A DNA stretch of 51,530 nucleotides from Escherichia coli (GTDB lineage: Bacteria; Pseudomonadota; Gammaproteobacteria; Enterobacterales; Enterobacteriaceae), in the NCBI RefSeq assembly GCF_003334815.1, contig NZ_QOWO01000030.1; one strand, written 5' to 3'. This document shows, one piece after another, positions 15,070 to 26,324 of this stretch. The notes beneath the pieces are model-generated. The model did not search any database and was not told the origin of the DNA. It worked only from the letters and a program-made list of their open reading frames with translations. Every line of letters begins with the position of its first letter. The first letter of the stretch is position 1. The position numbers and the translations under genes are program-made.

Positions 15070-15513
15070 ATGGCAGATATCACTCTTATCAGCGGCAGCA
15101 CCCTCGGCGGTGCCGAATATGTAGCAGAACACCTGGCTGAAAAGCTGGAAGAGGCGGGTTTTACCACCGAAACGCTGCACGGTCCGCTGTTAGAAGATTT
15201 ACCTGCCTCAGGGATCTGGCTGGTTATCAGCTCCACCCACGGTGCCGGAGATATTCCGGACAACCTTTCTCCTTTCTATGAAGCATTGCAGGAACAGAAG
15301 CCCGATCTTTCTGCAGTCCGCTTTGGCGCAATCGGTATTGGCAGTCGTGAATATGACACCTTTTGTGGGGCTATCGATAAACTCGAGGCAGAACTCAAAA
15401 ATTCCGGTGCAAAACAGACAGGCGAAACACTGAAGATCAACATTCTTGATCACGACATTCCGGAAGATCCGGCAGAAGAATGGCTGGGATCGTGGGTTAA
15501 TTTACTCAAATAA
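15070..15513 (+). CDS. mioC: FMN-binding flavodoxin-like protein MioC
   Basis: 147-aa ORF; flavodoxin signature (ISGSTLGGAEYVAEH); directly flanks oriC and is transcribed toward it. Confidence 0.95.
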   Translation: MADITLISGSTLGGAEYVAEHLAEKLEEAGFTTETLHGPLLEDLPASGIWLVISSTHGAGDIPDNLSPFYEALQEQKPDLSAVRFGAIGIGSREYDTFCGAIDKLEAELKNSGAKQTGETLKINILDHDIPEDPAEEWLGSWVNLLK

Positions 15514-15535
15514 GTATACAGATCGTGCGATCTAC

Positions 15536-15544
15536 TGTGGATAA
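15536..15544. promoter_or_regulatory. DnaA box R4 (TGTGGATAA)
   Basis: Exact consensus 9-mer at the mioC-proximal end of oriC. Confidence 0.85.
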
Positions 15545-15715
15545 CTCTGTCAGGAAGCTTGGATCAACCGGTAGTTATCCAAAGAACAACTGTTGTTCAG
15601 TTTTTGAGTTGTGTATAACCCCTCATTCTGATCCCAGCTTATACGGTCCAGGATCACCGATCATTCACAGTTAATGATCCTTTCCAGGTTGTTGATCTTA
15701 AAAGCCGGATCCTTG

Positions 15716-15724
15716 TTATCCACA
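15716..15724. promoter_or_regulatory. DnaA box R1 (TTATCCACA)
   Basis: Exact consensus 9-mer adjacent to the 13-mer region. Confidence 0.85.
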
Positions 15725-15737
15725 GGGCAGTGCGATC

Positions 15738-15781
15738 CTAATAAGAGATCACAATAGAACAGATCTCTAAATAAATAGATC
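15738..15781. repeat. oriC DNA-unwinding element: three tandem AT-rich 13-mers
   Basis: ctaataagagatc / aatagaacagatc / aaataaatagatc, the reverse complements of the canonical GATCTnTTnTTTT 13-mers. Confidence 0.9.
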
Positions 15782-15891
15782 TTCTTTTTAATACCCAGGA
15801 TCCCAGGTCTTTCTCAAGCCGACAAAGTTGAGTAGAATCCACGGCCCGGGCTTCAATCCATTTTCATACCGCGTTATGCGAGGCAATCACC

Positions 15892-17781: not shown

Positions 17782-17844
17782 CGCATTAAAAATGCCTGGT
17801 AAGCACCCGCTTACCAGGCAACGCATCAAGAACAGGTAATCACC

Positions 17845-18468
17845 GTGCTCAACAAACTCTCCTTACTGCTGAAAGACGCAGGTATTTCGCTTACCGATCA
17901 CCAGAAAAACCAGCTTATTGCCTACGTGAATATGCTGCATAAATGGAACAAAGCGTACAACCTGACTTCGGTCCGCGATCCTAATGAGATGCTGGTACGC
18001 CATATTCTCGATAGCATTGTGGTGGCACCGTATCTGCAAGGTGAACGGTTTATCGATGTCGGCACCGGACCAGGACTGCCAGGCATTCCACTCTCTATCG
18101 TGCGTCCTGAAGCCCATTTCACTCTGTTGGATAGCCTTGGTAAACGCGTGCGTTTCCTTCGTCAGGTGCAACATGAGCTTAAACTGGAGAATATTGAACC
18201 AGTACAGAGCAGGGTAGAAGAGTTTCCTTCAGAGCCGCCATTTGATGGCGTAATTAGCCGCGCTTTTGCCTCTCTGAACGATATGGTGAGCTGGTGCCAC
18301 CATCTTCCTGGTGAGCAAGGCCGTTTCTACGCGCTGAAAGGGCAAATGCCGGAAGATGAAATCGCTTTGTTGCCCGAAGAATATCAGGTCGAATCAGTGG
18401 TTAAACTTCAGGTTCCAGCCCTGGATGGCGAACGTCATCTGGTGGTGATTAAAGCAAATAAAATTTAA
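17845..18468 (+). CDS. rsmG: 16S rRNA m7G527 methyltransferase RsmG (GidB)
   Basis: 207-aa ORF starting at GTG; SAM-binding [10 protein letters not shown] motif. Confidence 0.95.
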
Positions 18469-18555
18469 TTTTTATCAAAAAAATCATAAAAAATTGACCG
18501 GTTAGACTGTTAACAACAACCAGGTTTTCTACTGATATAACTGGTTACATTTAAC

Positions 18556-18600
18556 GCCACGTTCACTCTTTTGCATCAACAAGATAACGTGGCTTTTTTT
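18556..18600 (+). terminator. rsmG terminator
   Basis: Inverted repeat gccacgtt...aacgtggc followed by eight T residues about 90 bp downstream of rsmG. Confidence 0.6.
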
Positions 18601-18959
18601 GGTAAGCAGAAAATAAGTCATTAGTGAAAATATCAGTCTGCTAAAAATCGGCGCTAAGAACCATCATTGGCTGTTAAAACATTATTAAAAATGTCAATGG
18701 GTGGTTTTTGTTGTGTAAATGTCATTTATTAAAACAGTATCTGTTTTTAGACTGAAATATCATAAACTTGCAAAGGCATCATTTGCCAAGTAAATAAATA
18801 TGCTGTGCGCGAACATGCGCAATATGTGATCTGAAGCACGCTTTATCACCAGTGTTTACGCGTTATTTACAGTTTTTCATGATCGAACAGGGTTAGCAGA
18901 AAAGTCGCAATTGTATGCACTGGAAAAATATTTAAACATTTATTCACCTTTTGGCTACT

Positions 18960-18995
18960 TATTGTTTGAAATCACGGGGGCGCACCGTATAATTT
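18960..18995 (+). promoter_or_regulatory. candidate atpI promoter
   Basis: tataat hexamer about 90 bp upstream of the atpI ATG with a weak -35-like element 17 bp upstream; position fits the known atp operon promoter. Confidence 0.45.
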
Positions 18996-19084
18996 GACCG
19001 CTTTTTGATGCTTGACTCTAAGCCTTAAAGAAAGTTTTATACGACACGCGGCATACCTCGAAGGGAGCAGGAGTGAAAAACGTG

Positions 19085-20289
<1,205 letters not shown>

Positions 20290-25972: not shown

Positions 25973-25992
25973 CACCGGCTTGAAAAGCACAA

Positions 25993-26024
25993 AAGCCAGT
26001 CTGGAAACAGGCTGGCTTTTTTTT
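25993..26024 (+). terminator. atp operon rho-independent terminator
   Basis: aaaagccagtctggaaacaggctggc hairpin followed by tttttttt just downstream of atpC. Confidence 0.85.
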
Positions 26025-26324
26025 GCGCGTGTGACCCGTCCTGAATAGCGTTCACATAGATCCTGCTGATATAAAACCCCCCTGTTTTCCTGTTTATTCA
26101 TTGATCGAAATAAGAGCAAAAACATCCACCTGACGCTTAAATTAAGGTACTGCCTTAATTTTCTGCAGACAAAAGGCGTGACGATGGTCGAAAATGGCGC
26201 TTTCGTCAGCGGGGATAATCCGTTATTGAACAATTTATCCTCTGTCCATTTCACGATGAAAAAAATGTAGTTTTTTCAAGGTGAAGCGGTTTAAATTCGT
26301 TCTCAAATTACAGTCAGGACGCGT

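Follow-up and report, generated by a model that had tools for sequence, protein, structure and literature searches.

A probable composite control region of conserved length in the spacer between rsmG and atpI of Escherichia coli

Described systems and the rsmG-atpI spacer

The promoter of the Escherichia coli K-12 atp (unc) operon, atpIp, was described in the 1980s (Nielsen et al. 1984, cited in PMC1805755), and that description is limited to the core promoter. The subject of the present analysis is the DNA in which this promoter lies, the 616-bp spacer between rsmG and atpI at positions 18469-19084 of a 51,530-nucleotide stretch of E. coli DNA (RefSeq assembly GCF_003334815.1, contig NZ_QOWO01000030.1), which is called the window below and to which all coordinates refer unless MG1655 is named. 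The classical promoter and the one in the window share the locus and the same -35/-10 pair, approximately 85-97 bp upstream of atpI, and the observation itself is a correct view of a known locus. The atp literature searched contained no description of a fixed CRP position at -167.5 relative to the atp start, of two conserved upstream elements termed here modules A and B, or of an architecture free of insertions and deletions (indels). Spacing as tight as or tighter than that of the oriC spacer, a fixed CRP site in an odd position and two orphan invariant modules together form a well-supported and apparently undescribed property of this locus. The spacer as a whole is probably a composite control region that is non-coding and without a gene, made up of a terminator, a phase-constrained upstream array for several proteins, a promoter and a leader.

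The spacer was collected from 61 other Enterobacteriaceae species of more than 20 genera and thinned to 36 non-redundant species, to which the species counts out of 36 refer. Metagenomic sequences were added by a pattern search with the CRP site and the promoter, giving 90 Enterobacteriaceae-like sequences for the length comparisons, while a search for AtpI homologues returned only relatives at least 85% identical and was of no use for deeper phylogeny.

Comparisons of enterobacterial oriC regions have revealed conserved protein-binding blocks between diverged spacers of fixed length. The rsmG-atpI spacer has the same block-and-spacer layout and is tighter, with a standard deviation (SD) of 3.2 on 615 bp against 4.8 on 374 bp for the oriC spacer. 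It differs from oriC, from which it is 2.7 kb away, in that neither a replication function nor an unwinding element of AT-rich 13-mers is evident. Nor does the spacer contain clustered DnaA boxes (TTWTNCACA) such as those of oriC, DnaA-reactivating sequences (DARS) or datA; a single conserved near-box was present at 18940 (TTATTCACC). A minus-strand match to the DnaA box at 18516 occurred in 21 of the 36 species, E. coli not being one of them.

Among the growth-rate-regulated promoters, guaB carries CRP at -117.5 and rrnB P1 carries Fis at -71, -102 and -143. The atp promoter is likewise a strong housekeeping promoter with a Fis-like site near -70 and with CRP bound farther upstream than class I positions, in approximate helical register with them, but its CRP site is farther away (-167.5) and extra invariant modules extend to approximately -390. 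The expression of atp is growth-rate dependent according to what PMC1805755 relates of Kasimoglu 1996, and the sites in the spacer would be candidates for such control.

The distal part of the spacer is also listed among the promoter islands (PMC3661553), which it resembles in being AT-rich, dense in promoter-like signals and bound by H-NS. Most promoter islands go with horizontally acquired genes, however, whereas the spacer belongs to the core genome and its blocks are kept across more than 20 genera. With small RNAs (sRNAs) derived from 3' untranslated regions (UTRs) or intergenic regions, such as STnc410, the spacer has in common a long intergenic region, a terminator hairpin and the detection of short RNA fragments, but it is without a covariance-model match, a conserved structure, a fixed terminator position or a Term-seq 3' end. 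STnc410, an enterobacterial sRNA, gave a full-length Rfam match elsewhere in the window, at 26084-26241 on the minus strand (188 bits, E = 1e-42); this lies in the atpC-glmU spacer (approximately 25973-26324) and is without annotation in the RefSeq records examined.

Fixed spacing, the CRP site and the distal modules

Spacer length was 612-621 bp in nearly all Enterobacteriaceae, with a median of 615 bp and an SD of 3.2 in the 90 Enterobacteriaceae-like sequences. At the same loci the neighbouring spacers varied by 15-20% (mnmG-rsmG, 102 ± 21 bp; atpE-atpF, 58 ± 9 bp), and the oriC-containing spacer measured 374 ± 4.8 bp. The spacers of 62 species aligned in 632 columns, in which invariant blocks (runs of 6-21 columns at 85% identity or more) alternated with fully diverged stretches of fixed length, and alignment-free distances between the block motifs confirmed this fixed spacing. 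The four-fold degenerate sites of rsmG and mnmG in the same species were only 44-51% identical to those of E. coli. Within Escherichia, single nucleotide polymorphisms were found between 18485 and 18917 and only one, at 18976, was located in the promoter-leader part. The mnmG-rsmG spacer (17782-17844 in the window) ranged from 53 to 118 bp across the Enterobacteriaceae loci L003-L155, with one case of 335 bp.

The CRP binding site, TGTGATCTGAAGCACG, is located at 18825-18840 within conserved flanks at 18813-18844, has two mismatches to TGTGA-N6-TCACA and was present in all 36 species. Its centre at 18832.5 corresponds to about -167.5 from the inferred atp start. Published binding data agree on this site, as it was recovered by genomic SELEX (systematic evolution of ligands by exponential enrichment), the activity of the atpI promoter was reduced in a crp mutant, chromatin immunoprecipitation (ChIP) sequencing in enterotoxigenic E. 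coli reported exactly the same 16-mer, and an in vitro genome-wide CRP footprint centred at MG1655 3922697 gave an estimated dissociation constant of approximately 2.2 nM. The position is neither that of class II (-41.5) nor in the range of class I (-61.5 to approximately -103.5), and a scan of the 36 species together with inspection of the sequence detected no conserved -10 element at class I or class II distance from the CRP site on either strand.

A distance of 161 bp separated the CRP site from a marker in the -10 element in 80 of the 81 Enterobacteriaceae-like sequences and in 28 of the 29 Erwiniaceae-like ones. Taken from the start of the site to the start of the -10 element, the distance was 162-164 bp in all lineages sampled, including those with spacers of 364, 506, 636 and approximately 713 bp, and the first three of these belong to more distant lineages in which AtpI is 46-60% identical. 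The CRP-promoter pair is therefore the oldest layer of the region. The sequence-only reading of this DNA had understated the distal ~450 bp, where deeply conserved blocks occur at fixed spacing and one of them is the experimentally verified CRP site. A second CRP-like site, TGCATGATCGTTCACA, was found in 19 of the 36 species, though not in E. coli, at the equivalent of 18876-18891 (centre about -117). In the distant locus L168, whose spacer has 23% GC, a perfect CRP consensus, TGTGAGTTAAATCACA, is located 187 bp before atpI. Together with L164, L167 and L170 (AtpI 35-47% identical), L168 has atpI directly after rsmG with no parAB between them, and the spacers of L164, L167, L168 and L170 are 364, 202, 251 and 506 bp in length. 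The same order, with atpI next to rsmG, was seen at every more distant locus recovered; replacement of an ancestral parAB pair by the spacer was considered as a conjectural origin.

Modules A and B were as conserved as the core promoter and both occurred in Enterobacteriaceae and Erwiniaceae. Module A (18611-18648, some 389 to 352 bp before the atp start) consists of AATAgTCAac at 18611-18622 and GaAAATATCAG.ctGCTAaAa.T at 18625-18648, with near 2 bits per column in the 36 thinned species. An internal spacing of 12 bp was kept without exception by 57 Enterobacteriaceae-like sequences and 24 Erwiniaceae-like ones, and the core of the module, GAAAATAT, and ATAGTCA are retained in Erwiniaceae. 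Module B (TGTTAAat.tTTattA..aATGTCAAT....GGTTTT, 18672-18708) comprises three repeats, TGTTAA, TTATTA and TGTCAA, which by eye are phased at 10 bp and lie at about -328 to -292; TGTTAA was 19 bp from ATGTCAAT in all 81 sequences. This module is retained in Erwiniaceae and in a further locus, L165, with an AtpI 60% identical. The lineage with the 364-bp spacer has neither module. Module B and the CRP site are 134 bp apart in Enterobacteriaceae, against 145 bp in Erwiniaceae and L165. The additional 11 bp amount to one turn of the helix, as would be expected if the register on the face of the helix matters, and this argues for a constraint at the level of DNA.

By eye the repeats of module B are reminiscent of sites for response regulators such as ArcA or OmpR. 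The ArcA 15-mer, GTTAATTAAATGTTA, was matched with up to four mismatches at 18673 and 18693 in 19-22 of the 36 species, a modest match that E. coli does not share. Between module B and the CRP site is a moderately conserved block, ATATCAnAAnGATG (18757-18770), which by eye is IHF-like with one mismatch, while a formal IHF consensus scan detected no site common to at least 18 of the 36 species. In Klebsiella, OmpR has been reported to gel-shift an atp fragment at -325 to -308 from the ATG, corresponding to approximately 18760-18777 of the window, and atp was de-repressed in an ompR mutant. Downstream of the CRP site a further block (tTT.cgcg...TttGCa.TTTTg; TGTTTAcgcgtTATTTA in E. coli) occupies 18855-18878; it is conserved in Enterobacteriaceae only and resembles a PhoP box by eye alone. 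Consensus scans were run for DnaA, IHF, FNR, CRP, ArcA, Fis, Fur, OmpR, CpxR, NarL, Lrp, H-NS, PhoB, LexA and Cra, and only CRP was convincing, the other matches being weak or situated within the promoter-proximal invariant region. A literature sequence search for modules A and B recovered only recombineering primers.

The promoter, its leader and the rsmG terminator

The last ~165 bp of the spacer is the sigma-70 atp promoter with an invariant operator-like region (-80 to -36) and a leader of approximately 85 nt, as read from consensus matches and conservation. The promoter atpIp has its -35 element, TTGAAA, at 18966-18971 and its -10 element, TATAAT, at 18988-18993 on the plus strand, separated by 16 bp. 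The two hexamers match the consensus at 11 of 12 positions, represent the only strong sigma-70 match of the region and were invariant at an identical aligned position in all 36 species. The atp transcript would start near 19000, as suggested by the position of the -10 element and by the mapping of the 1980s, which reportedly placed the start 73 nt before the GTG at 19073.

Of the columns between 18921 and 19000, 79% were at least 90% conserved. Within the invariant region directly upstream of the promoter (18921-18965), an imperfect palindrome of 26 bp, TGGAAAAATATTT|AAACATTTATTCA, has its centre at 18933.5 (about -66). Overlapping this palindrome or next to it, consensus scanning placed a Fis-like 15-mer at 18923-18937 when one mismatch was tolerated, a minus-strand ArcA-like 15-mer at 18934-18948 (listed as 18948 (-)) with four or fewer mismatches in 26 of the 36 species, the DnaA-box-like near-box mentioned above at 18940-18948 and a NarL heptamer match at 18956-18962. 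An FNR-like site, TTGTTTGAAATCAC, at 18962-18975 overlaps the -35 element and was present in 34 of the 36 species. An unpublished observation mentioned in PMC1805755 concerns candidate sites for ArcA and Fnr that precede atp and are conserved in Enterobacteriaceae. A weak ArgR signal at atpI in ChIP on microarrays was not reproduced by ChIP-exo.

The plus-strand atp leader (19000-19084, ~85 nt) is nearly invariant, with 77% of its columns at least 90% conserved, a Shine-Dalgarno sequence, GGGAGCAGGAG, at 19063-19073, and a GTG in frame with atpI at 19073. No conserved structure was found in it, as the consensus fold over 87 distinct sequences had -0.2 kcal/mol and the E. coli fold a z-score of -0.4. 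Published Term-seq data list a strong RNA 3' end at MG1655 3922387 (-), which is 19138 (+) in the window and 53 nt into atpI. Given a start near 19000, an atp mRNA ending there would be a 5' fragment of approximately 139 nt, and there is no obvious terminator after this end.

At the other end of the spacer, the first ~130 bp is the 3' end of the mnmG-rsmG transcript, which in E. coli ends at an intrinsic terminator recognised from its sequence and with partial support in vivo. The rsmG 3' UTR (18469-18600, plus strand) ends in the hairpin GCCACGTT...AACGTGGC at 18556-18593, followed directly by T7 at 18594-18600, so that a stable GC-containing hairpin immediately precedes a U-tract. The RNA fold had -14.3 kcal/mol and a z-score of -3.7 relative to shuffled sequences, and a simple terminator scan had missed it because its loop exceeds 8 nt. 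A second, weaker hairpin is located at 18518-18546. Short RNAs described as coming from the 'atpI/rsmG intergenic space', and found in abundance in the supernatants of E. coli cultures, have their position at MG1655 3922927/8 (-), equivalent to 18597 in the window and within the terminator U-tract, while the Term-seq data list no 3' end within the spacer. The position of the hairpin is lineage-specific, as other genera have a strong hairpin with a T-tail near 18570, ~25 nt further upstream. Two conserved hexamers in this part, TGTTAA(A) (18509-18515) and TTTAAC (18550-18555), make up an inverted repeat of GTTAAA with variable sequence between its arms; TTTAAC is retained in Erwiniaceae as GTTACATTTAAC, and in several genera the rsmG terminator has it as its apical stem.

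The gene order of the window, asnC-mioC-oriC-mnmG-rsmG-[spacer]-atpIBEFHAGDC-glmUS, is that of the E. coli oriC region, and with only two mismatches to MG1655 over 11.5 kb the spacer is that of E. coli K-12. Coordinates transferred from the MG1655 annotation (3925744-3925975) placed oriC at 15550-15781, in agreement with a dip in GC content at approximately 15500-15800. The description of the spacer given by the sequence-only reading was borne out in every point. With the last base of the rsmG stop codon at 18468 and the ATG of atpI at 19085, the spacer is exactly 616 bp long, and the open reading frames (ORFs) inside it are all of 30 codons or fewer, in line with its being called ORF-free. 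It is by annotation the longest intergenic gap of the window, as had been stated, the next-largest being mioC-mnmG (378 bp, containing oriC) and atpC-glmU (341-352 bp). Its AT-richness was also confirmed (GC 0.357 overall and 0.30-0.36 in 200-bp windows across 18400-18900, against approximately 0.50-0.58 in the flanking genes). The terminator-like hairpin with a T-run corresponds to the rsmG terminator, and the tataat noted about 90 bp before atpI is the -10 element of atpIp, 92-97 bp upstream of the ATG. The identification of the spacer as the atp promoter region was therefore correct, with the rsmG terminator also inside it. Of 5426 complete E. coli genomes, 5425 contained the spacer sequence in a single copy, with no RefSeq feature beneath it, and the curated MG1655 record has no annotated feature there. 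A reading of the spacer as a repeat element was rejected on the single copy returned by the paralogue search over the 5426 genomes.

Proposed action on atpIp and competing explanations

In the explanation proposed for the composite region, the middle ~320 bp would be a phase-constrained array of predicted protein-binding sites that acts on the atp promoter. Included in it are the high-affinity CRP site, kept at approximately -167.5 and thus about ten turns of the helix farther from the start than the classical class I site at -61.5, modules A and B and several lesser blocks. CRP and candidate DNA-bending or bridging proteins (Fis near -70, ArcA, OmpR, IHF and H-NS) would jointly fold the DNA ahead of the promoter into a single nucleoprotein complex. 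Such a complex would tune atp transcription to the carbon, respiratory and growth-rate state of the cell, and indels would be selected against, since they would turn the sites out of phase with one another and with RNA polymerase. This reading draws on the constraints on length and spacing, the depth of conservation, the binding of CRP and its effect, the H-NS occupancy of the distal part and the OmpR results from Klebsiella. The list of parts, the CRP site, the conservation and the constraint on spacing are shown by the data, and from them we infer both the action of the distal modules on atpIp through DNA bending or looping and the identity of the proteins bound. A stronger version, in which ~535 bp (18550-19084) forms a single phase-locked, enhancer-like nucleoprotein machine that predates the split of Enterobacteriaceae and Erwiniaceae, is a tentative suggestion that we hold to be rather doubtful. 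In that version CRP at -167.5 and two putative factors bound to modules A and B would reach the promoter by DNA wrapping or looping. If it were true, the main energy-converting operon would have an enhancer-like architecture that had been overlooked since the spacer was treated as neutral and used as a landing pad for transgenes.

Several observations weigh against a phase-constrained array. A 7-kb insertion is tolerated in the spacer at the atpI-gidB landing pad, and a cat cassette has been placed at 18651/18652, between modules A and B (primers in PMC5499823). E. coli UMNF18 carries an IS91-family element and a hypothetical gene at approximately 18792, between the 18757-18770 block and the CRP site, and the spacer of E. 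coli KR2009 has lost 43 bp within 18600-18780 and measures 573 bp. These insertions and the shortening are viable, so the architecture is not essential for viability; natural disruptions of the spacer were found in about 2 of 5426 E. coli genomes. The CRP site at -167.5 is far beyond the usual activating positions, and a looping or bending partner is hypothetical. The names given to the factors are those of weak sequence matches (ArcA at 10-11 of 15 positions, a negative IHF scan and Fis with one mismatch). The curvature test found no clean peak at 10-11 bp in A-tract periodicity, and this test was discarded as its z-scores were inflated by the homology of the sequences. A transcript may also start inside the distal region.

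Such a transcript is central to an alternative that we regard as unlikely, in which the distal modules belong to a separate minus-strand unit. Module A would then combine an operator with a promoter of the extended -10 type (TGATATTTT, 18635-18627), from which an RNA of ~830 nt would run across rsmG to a minus-strand terminator between mnmG and rsmG, either regulating rsmG or, by divergent transcription, feeding negative supercoils into the atp promoter. The promoter-like element (18627-18635, minus strand) is predicted from its conservation, being at an identical aligned position in 30 of the 36 species, and would give a start near 18620 reading antisense toward rsmG. A hairpin with a 12-bp stem at 17793-17820 has its T-run on the minus strand only, and Term-seq recorded a minus-strand 3' end at MG1655 3923737/8 (+), or 17787 in the window, so that an antisense transcript does cross rsmG in E. 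coli and may start within the spacer. That 3' end is weak, however, at ~1.2-1.4 thousand against ~92-135 thousand for the end inside atpI, and the minus-strand terminator is not conserved, as the mnmG-rsmG hairpins of other genera point either way and look like repetitive extragenic palindromic elements. Erwiniaceae have lost the TG of the extended -10 element yet keep GAAAATAT, the conservation of module A extends ~14 bp past what a promoter needs, and neither module B nor the fixed CRP distance is explained by an antisense unit. It is less probable still that the AT-rich distal part is a chromosome-structure element near oriC and not an atp regulator, that is, a nucleation site for H-NS or another nucleoid protein or a promoter island, with its spacing set by the geometry of a filament or bridge. 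Panyukov and Ozoline (PMC3661553) list a promoter island, 3920739_440 (U00096.2), at approximately 18370-18809 of the window, and give H-NS binding at this island in two ChIP datasets (H-NS category 'K'). In the variable columns, GC content does not track the third-position GC content (GC3) of the neighbouring genes (r = 0.19, slope 0.12), in keeping with such an element. Heptamer repeats, GTTAAAT/A, occur in conserved blocks 2, 3 and 6, and by eye they resemble the high-affinity H-NS motif, but the formal H-NS motif scan matched the -10 region only. Promoter islands and H-NS targets are moreover typically horizontally acquired and poorly conserved, the spacer being core genome with invariant blocks, and the distal modules are linked to the promoter by the helical register that they keep with it and with the CRP site. 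The large insertions have had no reported chromosome phenotype.

The least probable of the explanations, and one already largely refuted, is that the spacer hides a small RNA, for instance from the rsmG 3' UTR, or a small protein, as the sequence-only reading had suggested. The short RNAs that are abundant in culture supernatants and several E. coli ORFs of 20-30 codons would speak for it. The short RNA coincides with the terminator U-tract at 18597, however, as would a stable remnant left by the terminator when the mnmG-rsmG mRNA decays; Term-seq has no 3' end in the spacer, the position of the terminator itself varies among genera and the MG1655 annotation is empty there. At the gathering threshold Rfam gave no family in the spacer in a search of the whole window, and at E values up to 10 on 18300-19300 the only match was a spurious one to Plasmodium RUF1 (E = 0.19, 21 bits against a gathering threshold of 70). 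RNAalifold on the 36 sequences in sliding windows of 120 columns gave 0.0 as the consensus energy for either strand over the whole of 18468-18814, and per-species folds of six segments, including the inverted repeat of blocks 2 and 3 and the terminator segment, had mean z-scores of -0.6 to +0.25 relative to dinucleotide shuffles and hence no excess stability. The suggestion of a small RNA was thus not upheld on either strand, and that of a small protein fared no better, as no small ORF of 8-70 codons combined a Shine-Dalgarno sequence with conservation. ORFs of at least 10 codons had no start or stop positions common across species, and the best E. coli candidate of 8-70 codons was intact in 12 of 61 species and was without a Shine-Dalgarno sequence. 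A scan of viral contigs with the RsmG alignment had no matches.

A composite control region of the atp operon accordingly remains our preferred reading of the spacer. ATP synthase is central to bacterial physiology, and its transcriptional control in E. coli has so far been described by little beyond one promoter. The fixed CRP position, the two invariant modules approximately 300-390 bp upstream and the rejection of indels over more than 500 bp provide handles on atp control, and with them the vague statement that atp is growth-rate regulated becomes directly testable. The atpI-gidB spacer is also a popular 'neutral' integration locus, and insertions there split a strongly selected architecture and may alter the expression of atp or the behaviour of the transgene.

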